This document shows, in pieces, positions 18,615-61,019 of a DNA stretch of 64,000 nucleotides. Location: positions 2,240,001-2,304,000 of the forward strand of contig CM000155.2 of the NCBI GenBank assembly GCA_000004695.1, given 5' to 3'. How positions within the stretch are numbered: the stretch's first letter is position 1; every line of letters starts with the position of its first letter. The notes under the pieces are model-generated. The model searched no databases. It had not been told where the DNA came from and was given only the letters and a program-made list of their open reading frames with translations. Source of the DNA: Dictyostelium discoideum. Its lineage: Eukaryota. The position numbers were made by a program, and so were the translations under genes.

Positions 18615-18686
18615 GTTTCGATAGCTCAGTGGAAGAGCAAGCGACTGCAAATCGTTAGGTCGCCAGTTCAATCCTGGTTCGGAACT
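18615..18686 (+). tRNA. tRNA-Cys (anticodon GCA)
   Basis: GTTTCGATAGCTCAGTGGAAGAGCAAGCGACTGCAAATCGTTAGGTCGCCAGTTCAATCCTGGTTCGGAAC folds as a cloverleaf. It has a 7 bp acceptor stem, D arm GCTC/GAGC, anticodon stem AGCGA/TCGTT with loop CTGCAAA, and T arm GCCAG-TTCAATC-CTGGT. A T-rich Pol III terminator follows. Confidence 0.9.
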
Positions 18687-27209: not shown

Positions 27210-28332
<1,123 letters not shown>

Positions 28333-39433: not shown

Positions 39434-40234
39434 CTTTTTCTAAAAACCTAAAAAGGATTACAAAATCAAATAAATATTAACTTTTTTTGGTTACATAATA
39501 AAAAATATACAACCAAAAAAAAAAAAAAAAAAAATAATTATATTTAATATTAAATAAAAAACAGGAATTTAAATTTTTTAATTTTTTTTTAATTTTTTAT
39601 TTGGTTTTATTTAAAGAATGTACTCTTTATGAGAAGCCTCAATTTAAAGGAAATGAAAATCAAGGGTTGATTTAAGTCACGTTAAGAGAATTGTTCTCAG
39701 TTGACTCATTTGGAAAATTTTTCATAGCACAGCTCAAAAATTTCCGGTAAAGTAACTTTGTGATATAAAAAATCTATGAATTGTTAAAAAATGTTATTTA
39801 GATTATCCTTTGATATTTTCTTATTATGGGTTTTTTTTTTTTTTTTTAAAATTTTTTTTTTTTAATTTTTTTTTAATTTTTTTTTTTCTTTTTTTATTTT
39901 TTTATTTTTTTATTTTTATTTTTGTTTTTTTTTTTTTTAAATTAAATAAAATAATTTTTTTATTTTTCCAACGATTCTATAAATATTTTTTTGTTTTGTT
40001 TTGTTTAAACATATTTTTTTGTTTTGTTTTTTTTTATTTTCTTATAAAATAATATTTTAAAAATATAAAAAAAATAATATTTAAAACACTTTCCCATAAA
40101 ATTCACAAAAAGGGTTTTTTTTTTTATTTTTTTTTTTTTAATTTTTTTAAATATAAGTTATTAAAAAAAAAAAAAAAAAATGACATAACATAAAGCTAAA
40201 AAAAAAATCAAAACAAAAAAAAAAAAAAAGGAAA

Positions 40235-42724
<2,490 letters not shown>

Positions 42725-46131: not shown

Positions 46132-46204
46132 GGTTTTATAGTGTAATTGGTTAGCACCCAGGACTTTGAATCCTGTAATCTGAGTTCGAGTCTCAGTAGA
46201 ACCA
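46132..46204 (+). tRNA. tRNA-Gln (anticodon UUG)
   Basis: GGTTTTATAGTGTAATTGGTTAGCACCCAGGACTTTGAATCCTGTAATCTGAGTTCGAGTCTCAGTAGAACCA forms a cloverleaf. Acceptor GGTTTTA pairs with TAGAACC. The anticodon stem CAGGA/TCCTG has loop CTTTGAA, and the T arm is CTGAG-TTCGAGT-CTCAG. A T6 terminator follows. It closely resembles the eukaryotic tRNA-Gln(UUG) consensus. Confidence 0.88.
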
Positions 46205-46338
46205 TTTTTTTTTCTTAAAAATATTTTGACAGGTCACAGGTTCAAATCTTAAATTGGGTATCTACATAAAAAAAAATAAAGAAATAAATTTTGAGTAAAG
46301 ATCAAAAAAAGATTTTACACATTTTTTAAAATTTTTAA

Positions 46339-48074
46339 TTAAAAATTTGAAAAATTTAAATTTTTATTATTATTAAAATCATCTATTATTAAAGGTTTAT
46401 AACCATTAAATGACACACCAAAATTTTTTAAAAATTTATATTGAATGTCGGATAACTTAAATTGGTTTTCAATAACTGTTTGCTGATTTGATTTGTTTCT
46501 TTTTATATTTATTAAATATTCTAATAGAGAGTCATTTTGTAATTTTACAGATGATTTTAAAATTCTAATTAAAAGGTCACAAAATTCATTTTTAGATAAT
46601 AAAATAAAATCAATTAGTTTGATAGTGAAATAGTGATTATTGGATTGAATGAAAATTTCAAATATATATTCAATTTCCTTTTCACAGAAAAAACCAATTG
46701 AAATTAAATATAAAATAACCCTAGGGTTTGAAGCCAATAAATCATGTAATAATCTTTTCTTAAATGAGTTGCTTTTGTTTAAAACCAATTGTTTCTTTAA
46801 ATACTGATCAATAAAAAAGACCCAATTATTATTTATACAAAGAAATAAAATATTTAAAAATTCATTCTTTTCAAATTGAATTTGATTTTCAGAGTTTGAA
46901 ATTTCGGTTGACCACTTTTTTAAAATAAAAGGTAAAAGTTTTTTATTTGATTGATCATTACTTTCAAATAAATGATGATTTAAAGTTTTTGTTTTATATT
47001 CGAAGGTTTTTTTTGAAATGTAATCATTAAAGTATGGAAGACTATTCAATTTATTAAAAAATTTACATCTTGATACTCTGCAAAGAGGAGGTGATTGTAA
47101 TAATCTTTCAAACATATTTTCAAATAGATTTTTATTATCTTGAATCTTTAATGTTTTAACAAAATTCAAATTCAAGTTATTGAATAGTAATTGTTGATCA
47201 TATTTAATTGAGGATTCTAATAAAGCAAAATAATTATATACACTATTAATAATTTGAGATTGATTCTCGATTGAGGTTAATTGAATTTTAAAGTGATCAA
47301 ACCAATAATTTTCAAATAAATAATTTAAAATTTCTTGATGATTTTCATTTGCTACAGATATTAATAAAGTTAGCGGTGGTTTATAATATTTAGTATATAG
47401 TTTTACTAAAGGTAAATCATTTTGAATGGAAAATGTACGATTTGAATCAAAAATCTTTTGAAGATTTATACCATTTTTTAAAAAGAATTGAAACTTTTCA
47501 ACTGTTAAATATTCAGATGATGATAAACCTCTCCATATTGTCGTTGGTGCTTTCTTTGAAAGTTCAATTGCATTTGATAAATCATTATTTATACATGTTG
47601 GTAAAAATTTAATATTATTTATTAATGAATCGAATGCACGAGTTTTTAAAATGTATTGAGCAATACTTGGATCTTTAACTATAATTGAACTGGTATAGGA
47701 ATTCTTTAATTTCTTTATAAAATCATCAGGTAAAGAAATCATAACTTTTAAAAGTACCAACATTGATGATTTCATTAATGAACATGGTCTAATTTTAAAT
47801 TGATCAATGGTTTTAATTGAAACTTTTGTATCATAAACTTTTATTTTCGAATCAAAAGGATCCATATTTGAATTTAATTTTTTCTTAAAAATTTCTAAAA
47901 CCATTTTAAACATAAATTCATCACTGTATTCTATAATCTTTTCTAAAAATGTTAAATTTGAAGAATTTGATTCAAATAAACCAATTTTATTCAATACCAT
48001 AGGTCCAAACTCTTTTGATAATTTCTTTTCAACAATTTTTTCTAAAACTTTAAAAATTGATTCTTCAAAATTTA

Positions 48075-48129
<55 letters not shown>

Positions 48130-48645
48130 GTTATTAGCTTGAGGAGTTATTAAATCTAATAAAATTTTAAATCTTCTTTTAGAATCACAACTTGATGAGA
48201 ATGAAAATTTTTCTAAATTTTTACAATCATAAATTGTTGGATTAAATATATCTACAATAAATTTCAATGTTTCATAATTTTCTATTGAAACTAATAATGA
48301 ATCTAAAGAATTTGAAACTTTTTTAAATTGTTGTTCAATTTCAAATTGAAAAATCTTATAAATCTTGTAAAATATTTGAAAATCTAATTCCTTCCATTTA
48401 AATAATTTATATAAACAATAATAATTAAAATTTATAAAATGTTTATAATTATCTTTTTGAGAATTTTCAAATAAATAATTTAATTTCTCTATTAATAAAA
48501 CTTCATTCTTGGTTTTAATTATTAATGAAAGTGGAAATTCATAATAATTATATGTTAGATAATATTGATTACTAATTTTTAAAAATTGAAAAATTTTTTT
48601 CCTTAAAAATGAATTTCTATAAACTTTAAAAAATAAATCTCCCAT
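46339..48645 (-). CDS. Member 1 of a tandem lineage-specific paralog family, 768 aa (MGDLFFKVYRNSFLRKKIFQFLKISNQYYLTYNYYEFPLSLIIKTKNEVLLIEKLNYLFEN...). It is the most divergent copy and contains an N18 tract.
   Basis: It shares the roughly 100 aa N-terminal domain (LFxxVFxNxYLxxKIxxYI ... YNYY(D/E)FPLELxLKTKNxxLLIEKL ... FxxxCLxxLxxWxEL) and dispersed C-terminal similarity with the ORFs at 49490, 52229, 55609 and 58560. No known domain was recognised. Confidence 0.7.
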
Positions 48646-48715
48646 TTTAAATTTGTACTGTGCTTATTTAAAAAAAAAAAAAAAAAAGAAAAAATCAAAA
48701 AAAAAAAAAAAAAAA

Positions 48716-48748
<33 letters not shown>

Positions 48749-49489
48749 TAAAGATTTAATTATTTTATAAATAGAAAATTTAAAAAAAATTATTGTCCTT
48801 TTATTTTAAATTAAATATTAAATAAATAAAAATAAACATATACATATATATTAATTTTTGGTGATTATAAATTCAATCTTTAGCTTTATTACAAAAAAAA
48901 GTGGGTGAAAATAAGAAATTGTTTTTTTTTTATTTTTATTTTTTTTTCATTTTTTTTTTTATTTTTTTTTTAAAAAAGATAAAACATTGTTATTAACTTT
49001 TTTTTTATATCTTAAAATCATTAAGAGTTTCTAATTAAAAAAAAAAAAAAAAATTAAAAATAGAAATAAATAATAATAACTATTTTTTGAAATTATCAAT
49101 CTATTTTTATCTTTTTTTTTTTCAATTATCTAATTTGGGATATCTAAATTAAATTCCAAGATTAAAATAGTGTGTTATTGTTGGTTGATTCAATACCCCA
49201 AAAAAAATAAAAAAAAAAATAATAAAAAATCAGGTTCACTTAGAGACACTAGTTCTCATTAGTCGGGTCATTTTTTTTTTTTATTTCTTAAATTAATTGT
49301 GTTCAATTTTTTTTTTTTTTTTTTTTTTTTTAATAACCTTCTATATTTTGTTAATAAACTTTGAAATGTTCAACTATTTTTTTTTAAAAGTTTAAACTCT
49401 TTTTAATACAAATAAATAATAAAGGGTTATTTTCAAAATAAATTAAAATTAATAATTATTTTTTTTTTTTTTTTTTTTGAAGATAAATT

Positions 49490-51814
49490 TTATTTAAAAG
49501 TTAAAGAATAATTAAAAATAGTATTTAAATTTTTAATGAAAAAATTATAATGTTGAGAAGAAGTTTTTTTTGATAAATAATTAATTTTTGAATTATTAAT
49601 TGATAAATGACCAATTAAAAATAATTTAATTAAAATTTTATGTAAAATAAAACTATTACCTAGTTTTCTTTCTAATGAAATTGAACAAAATGATAAATCA
49701 TTTAAAAAACCACCATTATAAACAGAAATGAACAAAAGTTCAACATTTAAAGAAAAACCAAAAGATTTAATTTGAGAATTTGTAAAGATAATCGAATTTA
49801 AAATTGCAAAACGAATAATATTTAATGCAAAGGTTTTTGATCTCCATTTCGAAAGTCCTTTTAAAATATTTTCATTTGAAATTAATTGAGCAATTACAAA
49901 TTTAGAATTTTTTTTATTTATTTTACTAATTGAACTATAGATTTGACCTAAAATTTCGAAAACCATATTAGATACGATATCAGTATACACCTTTCTCAAT
50001 TGAGAATTGTAAAGCCACTTTCTTGCAGTTCCTGGGTTACTTTTTAACCATGACACAAACTCTGGATTAAATTTAAAATTTAGTATACTAATATCATAGA
50101 TTTTATTATCATCTTCTTGATTAAAAAAAAAAGAAGACCTTTCATCAAGTTCTACATAATGTTGTAAAATTATTGGTGAAATGTAATTAAAAAGGTCAAT
50201 TAAATTACATTGAATTGAATGAATTAACAATAAAATAAGATTTGTTTTAAAAAGTGATGGAGATGATCCATCACCAAAGCATATATTACCATGGTTGATA
50301 ATATTCTCTAAAAAACATTTATGTAATTCTTTATTACTACTACTACTGCCAGATTCAAATGCTTTTTTAATTTGATTATAATTATACTTTTTTGGAAACC
50401 TTTTAAAATAAGATTTTAATGCATTCACATCTTGATTCTTGATAATAACATTAAGAATTTCTAATGGATTATAAAAAAATGGTATTTCTTTTTCAAAAAG
50501 ATTTGATTCTATCATTTCTTTATTAACTGATTGTAAAAAGTAGTAATCAATATATTTGTGTTGTGGGAGTGGTAAAGTCTCAAACTTGACCTGTTCTCTT
50601 TTTCCAATTTTTCTAAGTTGGTAATCACAAACCCAAGAGATTTTAACATTATATAAGTTTTTTAATTCTTCAAAATAATTATCATTTAACCATATTGCTA
50701 CATCTGAATCATATATTAATCTTTGTTTGTGAATTGGTTCTTTATCTCTTTGAAAATATTTCCAGTAAAAATTTTTACATAAAACTTTTACAATATCTAG
50801 GTTAAAACTTTCAAAAATAAATCCAATTGGTATATCGAATGATTCCAATATCGATCTCTCTATACTAATTCCTAATAATTTCACAATTTCATCATTATTT
50901 TCTAATAGTGCTAAAGGTAACTTTGTTGGTGGTAGTGGTGTATATTTATATTTTTCTAATAATAATTTAAGCATAAATTGATCTTGGTATTTACTAATTG
51001 CACTAAATAAATTATTTATTGCTGAATAGAATGGATCATACAATATTTGAAATTTATTTGGGAAATATTCTAAAATTAGTGAACCAAATAGTTTTGATTG
51101 ATTTGTTTTAATTATATACTCTAAATAATGTACCAATTCTCTGAATGATACATCAATTTTTAATTCACTAAGGATGTATCTAAAAATTTCTTTTTTCTTT
51201 TTAATTTCATCATCATCATCATCATCATCACCATTTACTGTTCTTTTAAATTTATCAAACATTTTAAATATTGGTTCTATATCTATGGTTTCAATTTCGA
51301 GATACTTATTATTTATCAAGTATTTAAGTTTCTTTAAATCACAAATACCAATTATAATTGAATTATAATCAATTCTAACCAATCGAGCTATATATGGACT
51401 ATTATAATTTAATTTATTATGATATTTAATTTCCTTATTGGTTTTTTTAATTTGTTTATTAATTTCTGTTATTTCATTTTTAAATGTTTCAAAAACAATT
51501 TCAAATAATTCAAATGGTAATTCCCTCCATTTATATAATCTTTTTAAACAATATTCACTAAAATTTAAAAAATGTTTACTTTCTATTATTGATTTATTAT
51601 TATTATTATTATTATTATTTTTAAAATATTTATTATAATTATTTATTTTTTCAATTAATAATGGTTGATTTTTTGTTTTTAATATTAATTCAAGTGGGAA
51701 ATCATAATAGTTATATCCAATATATGTTTGTTCTTTATTGTGTTGTGTAATATATGAATAGATTTTATTGATTAAATATTTATTTTTGAATACTTTATAA
51801 AATAAAAAATCCAT
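49490..51814 (-). CDS. Member 2 of the paralog family, about 774 aa. It most likely starts at MDFLFYKVFKNKYL (ATG 51814). In-frame ATGs at 51821 and 51847 lie within an inverted-repeat arm.
   Basis: The ORF-track ORF 49490..51847 begins MIIFSPNPNMKMDFLF..., and the other paralogs begin MDLLF/MGDLFF. The N-terminal domain is conserved (YNYYDFPLELILKTKNQPLLIEKINNY). It lacks the Pro/Thr linker (YKYTPLPPTKLPLALLENNDEIVKLLGISIERS). Confidence 0.7.
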   Translation of the reverse strand: MDFLFYKVFKNKYLINKIYSYITQHNKEQTYIGYNYYDFPLELILKTKNQPLLIEKINNYNKYFKNNNNNNNNKSIIESKHFLNFSEYCLKRLYKWRELPFELFEIVFETFKNEITEINKQIKKTNKEIKYHNKLNYNSPYIARLVRIDYNSIIIGICDLKKLKYLINNKYLEIETIDIEPIFKMFDKFKRTVNGDDDDDDDEIKKKKEIFRYILSELKIDVSFRELVHYLEYIIKTNQSKLFGSLILEYFPNKFQILYDPFYSAINNLFSAISKYQDQFMLKLLLEKYKYTPLPPTKLPLALLENNDEIVKLLGISIERSILESFDIPIGFIFESFNLDIVKVLCKNFYWKYFQRDKEPIHKQRLIYDSDVAIWLNDNYFEELKNLYNVKISWVCDYQLRKIGKREQVKFETLPLPQHKYIDYYFLQSVNKEMIESNLFEKEIPFFYNPLEILNVIIKNQDVNALKSYFKRFPKKYNYNQIKKAFESGSSSSNKELHKCFLENIINHGNICFGDGSSPSLFKTNLILLLIHSIQCNLIDLFNYISPIILQHYVELDERSSFFFNQEDDNKIYDISILNFKFNPEFVSWLKSNPGTARKWLYNSQLRKVYTDIVSNMVFEILGQIYSSISKINKKNSKFVIAQLISNENILKGLSKWRSKTFALNIIRFAILNSIIFTNSQIKSFGFSLNVELLFISVYNGGFLNDLSFCSISLERKLGNSFILHKILIKLFLIGHLSINNSKINYLSKKTSSQHYNFFIKNLNTIFNYSLTFK

Positions 51815-52216
51815 TTTCATGTTTGGGTTGGGGGAGAAAATGATCATTTTTATTTTTTTTTTTTTTTTTTTATTTTTTTTTTTTTTTTATTAATTTATTA
51901 ATAAAAATTTTTTTTTTTTAACTTATTTTTTATTTTTTATTTTTTTATTTTTTTTTTTTTTTTTGTGATTTAATTTTATTTTTAGTATGAATTTAGTGGA
52001 GAGAACTCAAAATACACACGATATAATATATAAAAATTAATGTAATCATTCTGTTTATTTTTTTTGTTTTTTTTTTTTTATTTTTAGAATTCAATTATTT
52101 ATCATTCTTTTTTTTATGTAATTGTTTTTTTTTATTTTGAAAAGAGAGGGAATATATTTTATATCAATGATAAAAAAAAAAAAAAAAAAGATCATTTTCT
52201 CCCCCAACCCAAACAT
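51815..52216. repeat. MITE-like structure: a perfect 27 bp inverted repeat (atgtttgggttgggggagaaaatgatc / gatcattttctcccccaacccaaacat) flanking a roughly 340 bp AT-rich spacer
   Basis: Arm A at about 51822..51848 overlaps the 5' end of the member-2 ORF. Arm B at about 52189..52215 lies just 3' of member 3's stop (52229). The arms are exact reverse complements of each other. Confidence 0.55.
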
Positions 52217-52228
52217 TTTTTTTTTTAT

Positions 52229-52631
52229 TTAAAATTTTAATTTATTAAAATTTTTATTAAAAATAGTAATATTGTTATAACTAGCATTATGTATCATTGA
52301 AAAAGAAAATAATGCATTGATTTCTGGAAATTTATTTGTTGATGATATTGTTCTTAATAAACAATTATCTACATTTTTAAATGACATATATCCATTAAAA
52401 AACATTTTAATTAAAATTTTATGAAATACAAATCCTTTACCATTATTTTTATCCAAAAATGGTCTACAACATAATATTTCATTAATACTATTTTCATAAA
52501 ATGATTTTACCAAATTTTCATCATCGAAACCAAATGATTTGAATTGATTATCTGAATCTAAAACAATACCATTAATAACAGCAAAACGAATGATATTTAA
52601 AGGAATATTTTTCAAATCCTTTTTATTTTCA

Positions 52632-52669
<38 letters not shown>

Positions 52670-52673
52670 TTTA

Positions 52674-52768
<95 letters not shown>

Positions 52769-54702
52769 TTTATGATTATTATTATTAATATTTTCATACA
52801 TAATTTGATTTGATGTTAATTCTCTAATGATAAACTTTGAATCTGATTTTAAAGTTTTATTAATAATTTTATAATCAACTTTTTCATTTAAAATTTGAAA
52901 GACAGTGTGTGATAATGCATCAAAATAAAATGATTTTAAATGTGAATTGAAAAACCATTTTCTTGAGATATTATTATTTTTAGCACTTTTTAAACATTTA
53001 ATAAATTGGTGATTATATATAAAATCTTTTAAAGTAATCTTTTCATTATTCTTTATTGCTAATGAAATAAAATTAAAAAGTTCAAAAGAACCATAATCAA
53101 CACATGAAGCCAAAAATGAAATAATTGAATTCATATTATGATTTTTTGGAAAATTACAATTAAATATATTTTCTATAAAACAATTAAATAATTGTTTATT
53201 TCCACTATAAAATGCACTATTAACTTGATCGAAATTGTAATAATTTGGAAAAATATTAAAATAAGCAATCAATACTTCAACATTTTCTTCCTTTATTATA
53301 ATATCAACTAATGATGTTAAAAATGAATATTTATTATGAAGTTGTGCTAAAATTGAATATTCATTATAATTATTATTATTATTATTATTATGCTGTTGTA
53401 CTAAAAATTGTTCAGACTCTATCATTTCTTTATTGATAAAATCAAAATAACAATTTGCAATATATTGAAAAGTTTCAAATTTAACCTGTTCCCTTTTATT
53501 ATTGATTCTTAAATGTAAATCACATAGACATGAGATTTTAATTTCGTTTTTCTTTTTTTTTAATAATAAAAAATAATTATCACTTAAAAACAATGCAATT
53601 TTAGGGTCATATATTATTTGAATAGTTGAATTTCTATAAAATCTATCTGTTGTTTCATTGAATAAACTTGATTTTAATGCTTCACAAAGTACCTTTACAA
53701 TTTCTAAATCAAAATTGTTTAAAATAAATTCAAGTGGAAAATTCATTGCTTCTAAAGTTGATTTACTTATTCTAATACCTAACAATGTAAAAATTTCTGA
53801 TTCAGTTGTTGGTGTTAGTGTTGGTGTTGCTGTTGGTGGTGCAAGTGTTGTTGTTGTTGTTGTTTTTGTTGATGATGATGGTGGTGCAGGTGTTGTTGGT
53901 GCAAGTGTTGTTAGTGTTGGTGTTGGTGGTGGGGGTGGTGGTGGTGTTGGTGTTGTTGGTGGCGCAAGTGTTGTTAGTGTTAGTGTTGGTGTTGGTGTTG
54001 GTGTTGGTGTTGGTGTTGGTGTTGGTGTTGGTGGTGTTGGTGGTGTTGGTGGTGGTGTATATTTATATTTTTCTAATAATAATTTAAATATATATTGGTC
54101 TTTGTATTTAGAAATTATTTGAAATACATTGGTTAATTGATTATGTATAATTGGTAATTCTTTTGGGAATAAATCTATAATTTGTTTTCCAAAAATTTTC
54201 GATTGATCTTTAATCATAATTTCACATAAATATGTTGTTAATTGAGTAAATGATAAATCAATTTTAGATTCGTTTATTAAATATTGAAATATTTCTTTTA
54301 ATTTTATTTCTTCATCATGATGATCATGATTCACTTGGATTCTATAAATCATTTTTCTTTTTCTTTTTAATTTTCTTGAATGTATTAAACTAAAAACTGA
54401 ATTGATATTGATTGACTCAGTTTCGAGTAATTGATTATTTATTATATATTTGAGTTTATCTAAATCTCCATTAATGATTAGATAACTATGGTATAGTATT
54501 TTTTCTTTTCCATATTTATTTATTTTAATTTTTCCAATTATTTTTTCAATTTCTTTTTTAAATGTTTGAAAAATAAGTTCAAATAATTCTAATGATAATT
54601 CACTCCATTTATATAATAGTTTTAAACATTGTTCATTAAATGTTAAAAAATGTTTACTATTTAATATTGATATTTCTGAATATTTATTATTTTTATTATT
54701 AC

Positions 54703-54760
<58 letters not shown>

Positions 54761-54955
54761 TATAAAATATTTAATATAATTATTTAATTTTTCAATTAAT
54801 AATGGTTGATTCTTTGTTTTTAAAACAAGTTCTAATGGGAAATCATAATAGCTGTATCTGATTAATCTTTGTTCTTTATTATACTCTGAAATATATGAAT
54901 AGATTTTTTTCTTTAAATAAATATTTTTAAAAACCTGACTGAATAATAAATCCAT
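52229..54955 (-). CDS. Member 3 of the paralog family, 908 aa. It has the longest Pro/Thr-rich hypervariable linker (YTPPPTPPTPPTPTPTPTPTPTPTPTLTLTTLAPPTTPTPPPPPPPTPTLTTLAPTTPAPPSSSTKTTTTTTLAPPTATPTLTPTTESEIF) and a long Asn/Lys tract.
   Basis: It is over 80% identical to members 4 and 5 outside the linker and homopolymer regions. The linker is encoded by (ACACCA)n-type repeats, seen on the plus strand as (ggtgtt)n at 53811..54060. Confidence 0.7.
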
Positions 54956-55094
54956 TATATATATATAAAATAATATGTTGCTAGTTAAAAAAAAAAAAAA
55001 AAGAAAAAGAAAAATGAAAAATGAAAAAAAAAGTTTTTATAAATATATTTTTTTTTTTTTTTTTGATAAATTCTCAAAAAAAAAAAAAAACAAA

Positions 55095-55103
55095 ATCCCA
55101 CAA
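55095..55103 (+). promoter_or_regulatory. DUSE-like box (TCCCACAA), about 76-83 bp upstream of the Class I RNA at 55179
   Basis: The sequence caaaatcccacaaccaaaaa is present. The same box recurs at the same distance upstream of the second Class I RNA copy (58089..58096). Confidence 0.4.
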
Positions 55104-55178
55104 CCAAAAATAATAAAATATGTATCACGATATATATTAATAATTATAAAAATAATTAAATGTGCAAAAACACAAATA

Positions 55179-55239
55179 AGTTGACCTTACAGCAATCTTA
55201 ACAATTTTATCACATTATAAAAAAAAACCTCAGTCAACT
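55179..55239 (+). ncRNA. Class I RNA (Dictyostelid-specific small ncRNA), about 61 nt
   Basis: AAGTTGACCTTACAGCAATCTTAACAATTTTATCACATTATAAAAAAAAACCTCAGTCAACTG contains the exact 11 nt Class I motif CCTTACAGCAA, immediately 3' of a 5' stem strand (AGTTGAC). That strand pairs with the 3' end (GTCAACT). This is the published architecture of Class I RNAs. A DUSE-like TCCCACAA box lies upstream. Confidence 0.6.
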
Positions 55240-55608
55240 GTATAAAGTGATAAATTTTTTTAAGTTCCTAACTTCCGAATATTAAGAGAGGTCCGAGGTT
55301 CGAAACTCCGTATAGTAACCAATAAAAGTGACCCAAATGGGGCTCAGCTTAGTTGTAGGCCCACTAAAGCTAAAAACTACAAAAAACAATTTGAATCACC
55401 CAAAAACCAAAAACCAATCAAAAAAAAAAAAAAAAAGATTTAAAAAAAGAATGGAAAAAAAGTTATACATAACTTTTTTTTATTTAAAATTTTAATTTAT
55501 TAAAATTTTCATTAAAAATAGAAATATTATTATAACTAGAATTACGTATCATTGAAAAAGAAAATAAGGCATTGATTTCTGGAAATTTATTTGTTGATGA
55601 TAATGTTC

Positions 55609-57951
55609 TTAATGAACGATTTCCTTTATCTTTAAATGACATATATCCATTAAAAACATTTTAATTAAAATTTTATGAAATACAAATCCTTTACCATTAT
55701 TTTTATCCAATAATTGTTTACTACATAATATTTCATCAATACTATTTTCATATAACGATTTTACTAAATCTTCATCATCGAAACCAAATGATTTGAATTG
55801 GTTATCTGAATCTAAAACAATACCATTAATAACAGCAAAACGAATGATATTTAAAGGAATATTTTTCAAATCCTTTATATTTTCATTATTATTATTAATA
55901 TTATTATCATTATTATTACAATACATAATTTGGTTTGATATTAATTCTCCAATGATAAACTTTGAATCTGATTTTAAAGCTTTACGAATAATTCCATAAT
56001 CAACTTTTTTATTTAAAATTTGAAAGACTGTATGTGATAATGCATCAGAATAAATTGATTTTAAATGTGAATTGATAAACCATTTTCTTGAGATATTATT
56101 ATTATTTTTTGCACTTTTTAAACATTTAATAAATCGATAATTATTAATAAAATCATTTAAAGTAATCTTTTCATTATTCTTAATTGTTAATGAAATAAAA
56201 TTAAAAAGTTTAAAAGAACCATAATCGATACATGAAGCCAAAAATGAAATAATTGAAATTATATTATAATTGTATGGAAAATTACCATTAAATATATTTT
56301 CTATAAAACAATTAAATAATTGTTTATTTCCACTATAAAATGCACTATTAACTTGATCGAAATTGTAATAATTTGGAAAAATACTAAAATGAGCAATCAA
56401 TACTTCAACATTTTCTTCCTTTATTATAATATCAACTAATGATGTTAAAAATGGATATTTATTAAAATTAATTTGCTGTTGCGCTAATAATGAATTATTA
56501 TAATAATTATTAATATTATTATTATTTTGTCGTGCTAAAAATTGTTCAGACTCTATCATTTCTTTATTGATAGTATCAAAATAACAATTTAAAATATATT
56601 GAGAAGTTTCAAATTTAACCTGTTCCCTTTTACCAATGATTCTTAATTGTAAATCACATAGCCATGAGATTTTAATTTCATTTTTCTTTTTTTTTAATAA
56701 TAAAAAATAATTATCACTTAAAAACAATGCAATTTTAGGGTCATATATTATATGATTAGTTGGGCATGTATTGAATTTATCTGTTGTTTCATTGAATAAT
56801 CTTGATTTTAATGCTTCACAAAGTACCTTTACAATTTCTAAATCAAAATTGTTTAAAATAAATTCAAGTGGAAAATTCATTGCTTCTAAAGTTGATTTAC
56901 TTATTCTAATACCTAACAATGTAAAAATTTCTGATTCGGTTGTTGTTGATGTTGCTTTTGTTGCTGTTGTTGGTGGTACAAGTGTTGGTGTTGGTGTTTG
57001 TGTTGGTGTTGGTGTTGGTGTTGGTGGTGTTGGTGGTGTATATTTATATTTATCTAATAATAATTTAAATATATATTGATCTTTAAATTTAGAAATTATA
57101 TCAAATACATTGGTTAATTGCTTATGTATGATTGGTAATTCTTTTGGAAATAATTCTATAATTTGTTTTCCAAATATTTTCGATTGATCTGTAATCATAA
57201 TTTCACATAGATATGTTGTTAATTGAGTAAATGATAAATAAATTTTATATTCATTTATTAAATATTGAAATATTTCTTGTAATTTTATTTCTTCATCATG
57301 ATTCACTTGGATTGTAATTTCAGAACGAATCATTTTTCTTTTTCTTTTTAATTTTCTTGAATGTATTAAACTAAAAACTGAATTGATATTGATTGACTCA
57401 GTTTCGAGTAATTGATTATTTATTATATATTTGAGTTTATCTAAATCTCCATTACTGATTAAATTAATATGGTGTTGTATTTTTTCTTTTCCATCTTTAT
57501 TTATTTTTTTAATTTTTCCAATTATTTCTTCAATTTCTTTTTTAAATGTTTGAAAAATAAGTTCAAATAATTCTAATGATAATTCACCCCATTTATATAA
57601 TAGTTTTAAACATTGTTCATTAAATGTTAAAAAATGTTTACTATTTAATATTGATATTTCTGAATACTGATTATTATCGTTATTATTATTATTTTTATTA
57701 TTACTATTATTATTATTTTTTTTTTTATTACTATTATTTTTATTATTATTATTATTTTTAAAATATTTATTAAAATTATTTAATTTTTCAATTAATAATG
57801 GTTGATTCTTTGTTTTTAAAACGAGTTCTAATGGGAAATCATAATAGTTATATCTGATTAATCTTTGTTCTTTATTATACTCTGAAATATATGAATAGAT
57901 TTTTTTCTTTAAATAAATATTTTTAAAAACCTGACTGAATAATAAATCCAT
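55609..57951 (-). CDS. Member 4 of the paralog family, 780 aa as read. It has an apparent 1 bp deletion in a poly-A run near the 3' end, which truncates and alters the last roughly 45 residues relative to members 3 and 5. It has a short PT linker (YTPPTPPTPTPTPTQTPTPTLVPPTTATKATSTTTESEIF).
   Basis: The DNA downstream of the stop (55475..55608) still matches the C-terminal coding sequence of members 3 and 5 (…ccattaaaaacattttaattaaaatt versus …ccattaaaaaacaatttaattaaaatt). This indicates a frameshift, which is either a pseudogenising mutation or a homopolymer sequencing error. Confidence 0.6.
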   Translation of the reverse strand: MDLLFSQVFKNIYLKKKIYSYISEYNKEQRLIRYNYYDFPLELVLKTKNQPLLIEKLNNFNKYFKNNNNNKNNSNKKKNNNNSNNKNNNNNDNNQYSEISILNSKHFLTFNEQCLKLLYKWGELSLELFELIFQTFKKEIEEIIGKIKKINKDGKEKIQHHINLISNGDLDKLKYIINNQLLETESININSVFSLIHSRKLKRKRKMIRSEITIQVNHDEEIKLQEIFQYLINEYKIYLSFTQLTTYLCEIMITDQSKIFGKQIIELFPKELPIIHKQLTNVFDIISKFKDQYIFKLLLDKYKYTPPTPPTPTPTPTQTPTPTLVPPTTATKATSTTTESEIFTLLGIRISKSTLEAMNFPLEFILNNFDLEIVKVLCEALKSRLFNETTDKFNTCPTNHIIYDPKIALFLSDNYFLLLKKKKNEIKISWLCDLQLRIIGKREQVKFETSQYILNCYFDTINKEMIESEQFLARQNNNNINNYYNNSLLAQQQINFNKYPFLTSLVDIIIKEENVEVLIAHFSIFPNYYNFDQVNSAFYSGNKQLFNCFIENIFNGNFPYNYNIISIISFLASCIDYGSFKLFNFISLTIKNNEKITLNDFINNYRFIKCLKSAKNNNNISRKWFINSHLKSIYSDALSHTVFQILNKKVDYGIIRKALKSDSKFIIGELISNQIMYCNNNDNNINNNNENIKDLKNIPLNIIRFAVINGIVLDSDNQFKSFGFDDEDLVKSLYENSIDEILCSKQLLDKNNGKGFVFHKILIKMFLMDICHLKIKEIVH

Positions 57952-58088
57952 TTAATATATTAATAGGTTGTTAATCAAAATAAAAGAAAAAAAAAAGAAA
58001 AAGAAAAAAAAAGTTTTTTTAATTTTTTTTTTTTTTTTTTGATAAATTCTCAAAAAAAAAAAAAAAATAAAAAAAAGAGGAAAGAAAA

Positions 58089-58096
58089 TCCCACAA
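58089..58096 (+). promoter_or_regulatory. DUSE-like box (TCCCACAA) upstream of the Class I RNA at 58171
   Basis: The sequence gaaaatcccacaaccaaaaa is present at the same spacing, about 75-82 bp, as in the first copy. Confidence 0.4.
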
Positions 58097-58170
58097 CCAA
58101 AAATTATAAATATTTATCAGGATATATATTAATTATTTTAAAAATAATTAAATGTGCAAAAACACAAATA

Positions 58171-58229
58171 AGTTGACCTTACAGCAATCTTAACAAAATT
58201 TTTTCTGAATAAAAAAACCTAAGTCAACT
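58171..58229 (+). ncRNA. Class I RNA, second copy, about 59 nt
   Basis: AGTTGACCTTACAGCAATCTTAACAAAATTTTTTCTGAATAAAAAAACCTAAGTCAACT has the same motif and terminal stem, with the internal loop region diverged. A 3'-end fragment (aaaacctaagtcaactgtatc) is duplicated again at about 58321..58341. Confidence 0.6.
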
Positions 58230-58559
58230 GTATCTTTTATAAAATTTTTTCTAAAACCTAAGTCTTTTTTTTTTGAATTGGATAACGCAATTATTATTTG
58301 CTTCTCCTTGAGGTTATTCTAAAACCTAAGTCAACTGTATCTTTATAAAATTTTTTAAGGTTCGAACTCCCAAGCTAAAGATGTCCTAGGTTCGAAACTC
58401 GGTCACGAATCAAATTAATGTGACCCAAAATGGGGCTCACCTTGTTGTAGTCTTACTAAAGCTAAAAACAATCAAACCACCCAAAAACAGTAAAAAACTA
58501 AAAACCAACCAACATTCAAATTTAAAAAAGAATGGAAAAAAGTTATATATAAATATATT

Positions 58560-58982
58560 TTAAAATTTTAATTTATTAAAATCTTCATTAAAAATAGTAA
58601 TATTGTTATAATTAGCATTACGTATCATTGAAAAAGAAATTAATGCATTGATTTCTGGAAATTTATTTGTTGATGATAATGTTCTTAATAAACGATTTCC
58701 TTTAACTTTAAATGACATATATCCATTAAAAAACAATTTAATTAAAATTCTATGAAATACAAATCCTCTACCATTATTTTTATCCAATAATGGTCTACTA
58801 CATAATATTTCATTGATACTATTTTCATAAAATGATTTTACCAAATTTTCATCATCGAAACCAAATGATTTGAATTGAATATCTGAATCTAAAACAATAC
58901 CATTAATAACAGCAAAACGAATGATATTTAAAGGAATATTTTTCAAATCCATTTTATTTTCATTATTATTTTCATTATTGTA

Positions 58983-59072
<90 letters not shown>

Positions 59073-61019
59073 ATATATAATTTGGTTTGATGTTAATTCT
59101 CTAATGATAAACTTTGAATCTGATTTTAAAGCTTTATGAGTAATTCTATAATCGACTTTTTTGTTTAAAATTTGAAAGACAGTATGTGATAATGCATCAA
59201 AATAAAATGATTTTAAATGTGAATTGATAAACCATTTTCTTGAGATATTATTATTACTTTTAACACTTTTTAAACATTCAATAAATTGATAATTACTAAT
59301 AAAATATTCTATACTAATATTTTCATTATTCTTTATTGTTAATGAAATAAAATTAAAAAGTTTGAAAGAACCATAATCGATACATGAAGCCAAAAATGAA
59401 ATAATTGAAAATATATTATAATTGTATGGAAAATTACCATTAAATATATTTTCTATAAAACAATTAAATAATTGTTTATTTCCACTATAAAATGCATTAT
59501 TAACTTGATTGAAATTGTAATAATTTGGAAAAATATTAAAATAAGCAATCAATGCTCCAACATCTTCTTCCATTACTATAATATCAACAAATGATGTTAA
59601 AAATGAATAATTATTATTATAATAATTATTATGCTGTTGTGCTAAAAATTGTTCAGACTCTATCATTTCTTTATTGATAAAATCAAAATAACAATTTGCA
59701 ATATATTGAGAAGTTTCAAATTTAACCTGTTCCCTTTTACCAACGATTCTTAATCGTAAATCACATAGCCATGAGATTTTAATTTCGTTTTTCTTTTTTT
59801 TTAATAATAAAAAATAATTATCACTTAAAAACAATGCAATTTTAGGGTCATATATTATTTGAATAGTTGAATTTGTATTAAATTTATCTGTTGTTTCATT
59901 GAGTAATCTTGATTTTAATGCTTCGCAAAGTACCTTTACAATTTCTAAATCAAAATTGTTTAAAATAAATTCAAGTGGGAAATTCATTGCTTCTAAAGTT
60001 GATTTACTTATTCTAATACCTAACAATGTAAAAATTTCTGATTCGGTTGTTGTTGGTGTTGGTGTTGGTGTTGGTGTTGGTTTTTTTGTTGGTGTTTGTG
60101 GTGGTACAAGTGTTGGTGTTGGTGTTGGTGGTGGTGTTGGTGGTGTTGGTGGTGGTGTATATTTATATTTATCTAATAATAATTTAAATATAAATTGGTC
60201 TTTGTATTTAGAAATTATTTGAAATACATTGGTTAATTGATTATGTATAATTGGTAATTCTTTTGGAAATAATTCTATAATTTGTTTTCCAAATATTTTC
60301 GATTGATCTTTAATCATAATTTCACATAAATATGTTGTTAATTGAGTGAATGATAAATCAATTTTTGATTCTTTTATTAAATATTGAAATATTTCTTGTA
60401 ATTTTATTTCTTCATCATGATGATCATGATTCACTTGGATTGTAATTTCAGAACGAATCATTTTTCTTTTTCTTTTTAATTTTCTTGAATGTATTAAACT
60501 AAAAACTGAATTGAAGTTGATTGATTCAGTTTCGAGTAATTGATTATCTATTATATATTTGAGTTTATCTAAATCTCCATTACTGATTAAATTAATATGG
60601 TGTTGTATTTTTTCTTTTCTATATTTATTTATTTTTTTAATTTTTCCAATTAATTTCTCAATTTCTTTTTTAAATGTTTGAAAAATAAGTTCAAATAATT
60701 CTAATGGTAATTCACTCCATTTATATAATAGTTTTAAACATTGTTCATTAAATGTTAAAAAATGTTTACTATTTAATATTGATATTTCTGAATACTGATT
60801 ATTATTATTATTAATATTATTATTTTTAAAATATTTATTATAATTATTTAATTTTTCAATTAATAATGGTTGATTCTTTGTTTTTAAAACGAGTTCTAAT
60901 GGGAAATCATAATAGTTATATCTGATAGATCTCTGTTCTTTATTATACTCTGAAATATATGAATAGATTTTTTTCTTTAAATAAATATTTTTAAAAACCT
61001 GACTGAATAATAAATCCAT
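58560..61019 (-). CDS. Member 5 of the paralog family, 819 aa. Its PT linker reads YTPPPTPPTPPPTPTPTLVPPQTPTKKPTPTPTPTPTTTESEIF, and it has an N30 tract.
   Basis: Outside the linker it is near-identical to members 3 and 4 in sequence and domain order. The full C-terminus is intact (…LRTLSSTNKFPEINALISFSMIRNANYNNITIFNEDFNKLKF*). Confidence 0.7.

Follow-up and report, generated by a model that had tools for sequence, protein, structure and literature searches.

Class I RNAs of Dictyostelium discoideum are found mainly in the cytoplasm and are regulated during development (PMC7919456, citing Aspegren 2004 and Avesson 2011). Kjellin et al. (2021, Genome Res 31:436, PMC7919456) provide curated sequences of the family in their supplementary code archive. 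According to that study, the D. discoideum RNAs start with a G after AA, end with CUG(U) and measure 42-65 nt, and their genes are intergenic and often located in clusters of two or more. In many of these genes it is a TGTG box (AAATGTG), and not the RNA start, that follows the DUSE at about 60 nt, the distance from this box to the mature 5' end being variable. T runs trail many of the genes and RNA polymerase III has been suggested for their transcription; the DUSE itself is tied to both Pol II and Pol III genes (PMC7919456). [quoted passage not shown]

The whole 64-kb stretch of DNA analysed here (64,000 nucleotides, the window) was scanned against all 4227 Rfam families. The family RF01414 (Dicty_Class_I_RNA) matched at 55180-55240 on the forward strand with 57.0 bits, where the gathering score is 41.5 (E 1.9e-8). 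This alignment spans positions 1-56 of the 56 of the model with zero non-canonical pairs. The match was recovered in a sub-window search with an E of 1.1e-9. A string search revealed that the same segment is identical, in 61 out of 61 nucleotides, to DdR-59 of the curated set (PMC7919456). Moreover, adding 2,240,000 to the window coordinates gives the published coordinates of r59, r60 and r61 alike on DDB0232433 (chromosome 6), which places the window at 2,240,001-2,304,000 of chromosome 6 of D. discoideum AX4. The exact match of the neighbouring ORF 55609-57951 to an AX4 protein confirms this independently. An earlier note, made from the letters of this stretch, had proposed a Class I RNA gene with an upstream DUSE here and had named a covariance-model search as a way to check it; the score above the gathering threshold and the complete identity to DdR-59 bear this proposal out. 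The features of the locus and its surroundings are collected in the table.

Features of the DdR-59 locus, the related DdR-60 locus and the flanking paralogous genes (window positions unless a chromosome is given)
Feature	Position	Strand	Remarks
Mature Class I RNA DdR-59	55180-55240	+	61 nt; RF01414; exact match; published coordinates
DdR-59 5' stem GTTGAC	55180-55185	+	
11-nt motif CCTTACAGCAA	55185-55195	+	
DdR-59 variable A/U-rich loop	55196-55232	+	
DdR-59 3' stem GTCAAC	55233-55238	+	followed by terminal UG at 55239-55240
DUSE TCCCACAA	55096-55103	+	pattern search; putative DdR-59 promoter box
TGTG box AAATGTG	55158-55164	+	62 nt after DUSE start, 22 nt before RNA start
T7 run	55255-55261	+	first run of at least four T past the RNA, 15 nt beyond the mature 3' end
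r59 (DDB_G0295633)	chromosome 6, 2295180-2295241	+	published Class I annotation
DdR-60 (r60, DDB_G0295635)	58172-58230	+	59 nt; RF01414, 53.5 bits; 59/59 exact match
DdR-60 DUSE	58089-58096	+	
DdR-60 TGTG box	58150-58156	+	
r60 (DDB_G0295635)	chromosome 6, 2298172-2298230		published Class I annotation
r61 (DDB_G0295637)	chromosome 6, 2298272-2298337		published Class I annotation
Paralog ORF 1	46339-48645	-	
Paralog ORF 2	49490-51847	-	
Paralog ORF 3	52229-54955	-	
Paralog ORF 4	55609-57951	-	DDB_G0292934, Q54CG4_DICDI, hypothetical protein
Paralog ORF 5	58560-61019	-	

In the RNA, GTTGAC pairs with GTCAAC over a 47-nt loop, and the minimum free energy fold of the 61 nt consists of this 6-bp terminal stem (-3.82 kcal/mol, z -1.06). 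As this value is no better than that of shuffled sequences, folding energy was dropped as evidence and the support for DdR-59 comes from the covariance model and the sequence identity. The 11-nt motif named in the earlier note is present. Allowing for at most one mismatch, CCTTACAGCAA occurs in two copies in the window (55185 and 58177) against 0.4 expected, the second copy being that of DdR-60. The motif had been placed directly 3' of a stem strand; it does adjoin that strand, but it is not strictly 3' of it, since the two overlap by one base, the C that opens the motif being at once the final base of the stem strand. Six pairs of the AGTTGAC/GTCAACT stem put forward in the earlier note hold, while the seventh, A55179-T55239, is possible in the DNA but the annotated RNA starts at G55180. 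For the same gene, the end coordinate 55239 given there is 1-2 nt short of the annotated end, which is drawn differently by Kjellin et al. (G55240, +61) and by dictyBase (55241, +62); otherwise no difference from the published r59 was found. The RNA starts with GTTGAC after ATAA and ends with GTCAACTG before TA, and both these termini and the length of 61 nt fit the family rule. In the folded molecule, the conserved 11-nt motif CCUUACAGCAA would be single-stranded, beside the 5' strand of the 6-bp stem that joins the ends.

For comparison with the family, the 37 curated D. discoideum Class I RNAs (PMC7919456) were used. The six stem positions are paired in 95-100% of these RNAs and show compensatory changes (e.g. 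GCUCGC/GCGAGU), while an exact CCTTACAGCAA is present in 30 and a CTG (CUG) end in 35 of the 37. DdR-59 has the motif CCUUACAGCAA exactly and adjoining the 5' stem strand, as well as the end-joining stem of about 6 bp. Its gene is intergenic, between the minus-strand ORFs 52229-54955 and 55609-57951, and clustered, with DdR-60 located 2,992 bp downstream.

Upstream of the RNA, the first base of the DUSE TCCCACAA lies 84 nt before G55180, and 76 nt separate its end from the RNA; the box described earlier at about 80 bp upstream is indeed present. In the MEME output of that study (Kjellin et al. 2021, PMC7919456), the r59 box is given with identical flanks (AAAAACAAAA TCCCACAA CCAAAAATAA). Table S2 of the same study lists for DdR-59 the DUSE TCCCACAA with a duse_dist of 75, and the TGTG-box AAATGTG with a TGTG-box_dist of 14 and an inter_dist of 61. 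It had been remarked that the DUSE sits farther upstream than the roughly 60 bp reported; this distance is correct but not an anomaly, since the TGTG box is situated about 60 nt downstream of the DUSE (62 nt, start to start). The TGTG box of DdR-59 may act as a further promoter element or may mark where a precursor transcript begins. On its own, the DUSE consensus WCCCAYAA shows no enrichment, with 11 sites in the window where 9.4 would be expected. Downstream of the RNA, the T7 run is a candidate RNA polymerase III terminator, in which case the transcript would carry a short 3' trailer that is trimmed. A scan for bacterial-type promoters and terminators was uninformative for this eukaryotic locus.

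A sequence resembling a downstream Pol III B box, GGTTCGAAACT, is located 57 nt after DdR-59 and was not counted as evidence for Pol III. The pattern GTTCRANNC occurs 11 times in the window against 7.3 expected, a number reached by 10 out of 100 shuffles, and B-box-like motifs have been described at about every 7.5 kb genome-wide (PMC5391098). The GGTTCGAAACT block is conserved no better than other blocks of the same flank. B-box-like GGTTCGAAACT or GGTTCGAACTC sequences are present at 55297-55307, 58359-58369 and 58389-58399 (+), and also at 4760-4770; those downstream of DdR-59 and DdR-60 are not accompanied by a tRNA and may be chance motifs copied by duplication. ARAGORN predicted no tRNA within the DdR-59/DdR-60 spacer region. 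Elsewhere in the window, tRNA-Cys(GCA) is encoded at 18615-18686 (+) and tRNA-Gln(UUG) at 46132-46204 (+), the latter followed 36 nt downstream by a B-box-like GTTCAAATC (46240-46248) that resembles the Dictyostelium external B box.

Five paralogous intronless ORFs of 768-908 amino acids form a tandem array on the minus strand from 46339 to 61019, as revealed by self-BLAST and the ORF listing. The fourth of these corresponds exactly to XP_629452.1, the hypothetical protein encoded by DDB_G0292934 of D. discoideum AX4, and a Pfam search with the five flanking paralogs found zero families. The last three paralogs are part of tandem units of about 3 kb that are about 89-92% identical. In agreement with the earlier note, the ORF listing places the locus between the third and the fourth paralog. 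DdR-59 is oriented divergently from the third one, whose ATG at 54955 is 140 bp from the DUSE, and DdR-60 occupies the equivalent place between the fourth and the fifth. These equivalent positions in the tandem units show that the Class I gene was duplicated along with the protein gene; in the self-BLAST, segment 53995-55243 showed 89.5% identity to 56982-58233. The pair accordingly originated in a tandem duplication of a unit of about 3 kb, comprising the gene of the hypothetical protein and the Class I gene. Such a co-duplication is a concrete case of the expansion by duplication proposed by Kjellin et al. (PMC7919456). Self-BLAST also showed short-period simple repeats (85-97% identity) common to 27817-27996, 40711-40951 and 52620-52811, the last copy being inverted relative to the other two. 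At least this last copy is located inside a paralog ORF, and the repeats probably represent the low-complexity coding sequence that is typical of Dictyostelium.

Among the 37 curated RNAs, DdR-60 is the nearest relative of DdR-59 with 87% identity. The two share the promoter architecture, the first 26 nt, the 3' stem and the position relative to the paralogous protein gene, and differ in length (59 nt for DdR-60) and in the variable loop. Compared element by element, the DUSE, the TGTG box, the stretch from the TGTG box to +1, the 5' stem plus motif and the 3' stem plus UG are all 100% identical, with lower values for the DUSE-to-TGTG spacer (89%), the variable loop (76%), the trailer (73%) and the downstream DNA (66%). 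Upstream, the differences comprise six changes in the DUSE-TGTG spacer and a 17-bp indel just upstream of the DUSE. This pattern of conservation matches the constraint seen across the family. Past the 3' end, DdR-60 has a T4 run after 5 nt, whereas the T7 run of DdR-59 follows after 15 nt.

The DdR-60 locus alone has a downstream insertion of about 105 bp with a duplicated 3' end, annotated as r61. The insertion region (58216-58357) holds r61 at 58272-58337 and ends in a second Class I 3' end plus trailer (AAACCTAAGTCAACTGTATCTTTATAAAATTTTTT), 58323-58357 repeating 58216-58250. Only the 3' stem strand is present in r61, which has neither the 11-nt motif nor a DUSE at the right distance. It gave zero Rfam matches even at E values up to 5 and is not among the RNAs curated in 2021; it probably represents an incomplete duplicate and not a functional gene. 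Beyond the two Class I matches, a permissive Rfam search of 54900-58700 returned only chance-level hits to SNORD28 and mir-3613 (E above 1).

It is unlikely, in our estimation, that DdR-59 is a decaying pseudogene copy of the highly expressed DdR-60, heading to silence with the family signature still in place. Published read numbers would agree with such a decay: in the RNA-seq libraries from 0, 4 and 8 h of development, 3,416-7,833 reads each were counted for DdR-59, against 543,127-1,555,072 for DdR-60 (PMC7919456, Table S2). However, thousands of reads are not silence, the counts of small structured RNAs are biased by library preparation, and DdR-59 was scored as expressed by the authors (read coverage 1). 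Similarly, the divergence of the loop and the trailer from those of DdR-60 could be read as decay, but the DUSE, the TGTG box, their spacing, the stem, the motif and the terminal G...CUG are intact and identical to DdR-60. Moreover, the classifier score of DdR-59 (74.37) and its score in the authors' own covariance model (56.9) are the top values among the D. discoideum rows listed of Table S2 (PMC7919456). A further point compatible with decay comes from a precursor that would extend from the TGTG box as far as the terminator, in which the DdR-59 loop (55206-55218) can pair with the trailer (55241-55253) and displace the terminal stem. With this loop-trailer pairing, the putative precursor (55158-55262) folds at -13.6 kcal/mol with a z of -2.17.

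The same abundance gap, about 160-200-fold despite 100% identical promoter and core elements, could mean that the abundance of Class I RNAs is set after transcription start, a proposal to which we attach little probability. If true, DdR-59 and DdR-60 would constitute a natural gene pair for dissecting Class I RNA biogenesis. As a speculative explanation of the low abundance of DdR-59, its modelled loop-trailer pairing, in competition with the terminal stem, might impair processing or stability. Another possible cause is the distance of the terminator, with T4 at +5 in DdR-60 versus T7 at +15 in DdR-59.

A chance arrangement, in which an A/T-rich spacer contains the 11-mer, a short inverted repeat and a DUSE-like octamer but no RNA is made, is extremely improbable. 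The DUSE consensus is indeed unenriched and the stem energetically unremarkable, so the single pieces are weak, but their combination is strong and far beyond chance, as expressed by the E value of the covariance model. In addition, chance would not give exact identity in sequence and coordinates to a curated, RNA-seq-supported gene, is refuted by the published read counts, and would not keep the functional blocks perfectly when compared with the diverged paralogous DdR-60 locus. Finally, the suggestion that the locus may be an unannotated new member of the family, which had nothing in its favour other than that the earlier note had no access to annotation, is wrong, since r59 is listed in published_class_I.gff (ID DDB0237397, parent DDB_G0295633) and DdR-59 in ddi_curated.fa, ddi_curated.bed and Tables S2/S3 (PMC7919456), an outcome that the note had itself foreseen.

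The locus as a whole is therefore best explained, with near certainty, as the known Class I RNA gene DdR-59, with a DUSE and a TGTG box upstream and co-duplicated with DdR-60. No evidence contrary to this identification was found, and the caveats touch the mechanism. The gene has been annotated for years and was included, with expression data, in the 2021 curated set. The result consequently has little weight as a discovery; it shows that a real ncRNA family is recognisable from raw sequence.

For the known gene DdR-59, the following course of events is proposed. The DUSE 84 nt and the TGTG box 22 nt upstream, in an arrangement typical of D. discoideum, would drive transcription. The polymerase is probably Pol III, which would stop at the T7 run 15 nt downstream, and the ends of the precursor would then be trimmed to the 61-nt form. 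By analogy with DdR-21, the mature RNA would be expected to reside in the cytoplasm and to bind Rnp1A/CIBP. It would join the pool of Class I RNAs that modulates the early phase of multicellular development, the buffering of RNA-binding proteins being a possible mode of action. In the published counts the abundance of DdR-59 is about 160-200 times below that of DdR-60, so that this RNA individually may contribute little.

Boxes similar to the DUSE are found at other places in the window. One of them, ACCCATAA at 39824-39831 (-), is located in a 1.2-kb intergenic region (39014-40235), with comparatively G+C-richer sequence downstream of it on the minus strand. The region contains zero Rfam families, the best hit being a chance-level preQ1-II (E 0.28). 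This box could belong to another small ncRNA gene or be due to chance. Two U3 snoRNA genes (RF00012, 90 bits each) are encoded at 28599-28807 and 30802-31010 (+), within a duplicated segment of 316 bp that is 97.5% identical and whose copies are 2.2 kb apart. A DUSE TCCCATAA (28536 and 30739) starts 63 nt upstream of either gene.

When compared with known systems, DdR-59 has an upstream [A/T]CCCA[C/T]AA box in common with the two U3 snoRNA genes. The box of the U3 genes starts 63 nt before the RNA and is not followed by a TGTG box, whereas that of DdR-59 starts 84 nt before the RNA with a TGTG box in between. Among the Class I RNAs, a knockout phenotype, in vitro structure probing and Rnp1A/CIBP binding are described for DdR-21 only (PMC7919456). 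The loop sequence of DdR-21 is unlike that of DdR-59, but both RNAs share the GUUGAC/GUCAAC stem, the 11-nt motif, the terminal CUG and a similar length (55 nt for DdR-21).
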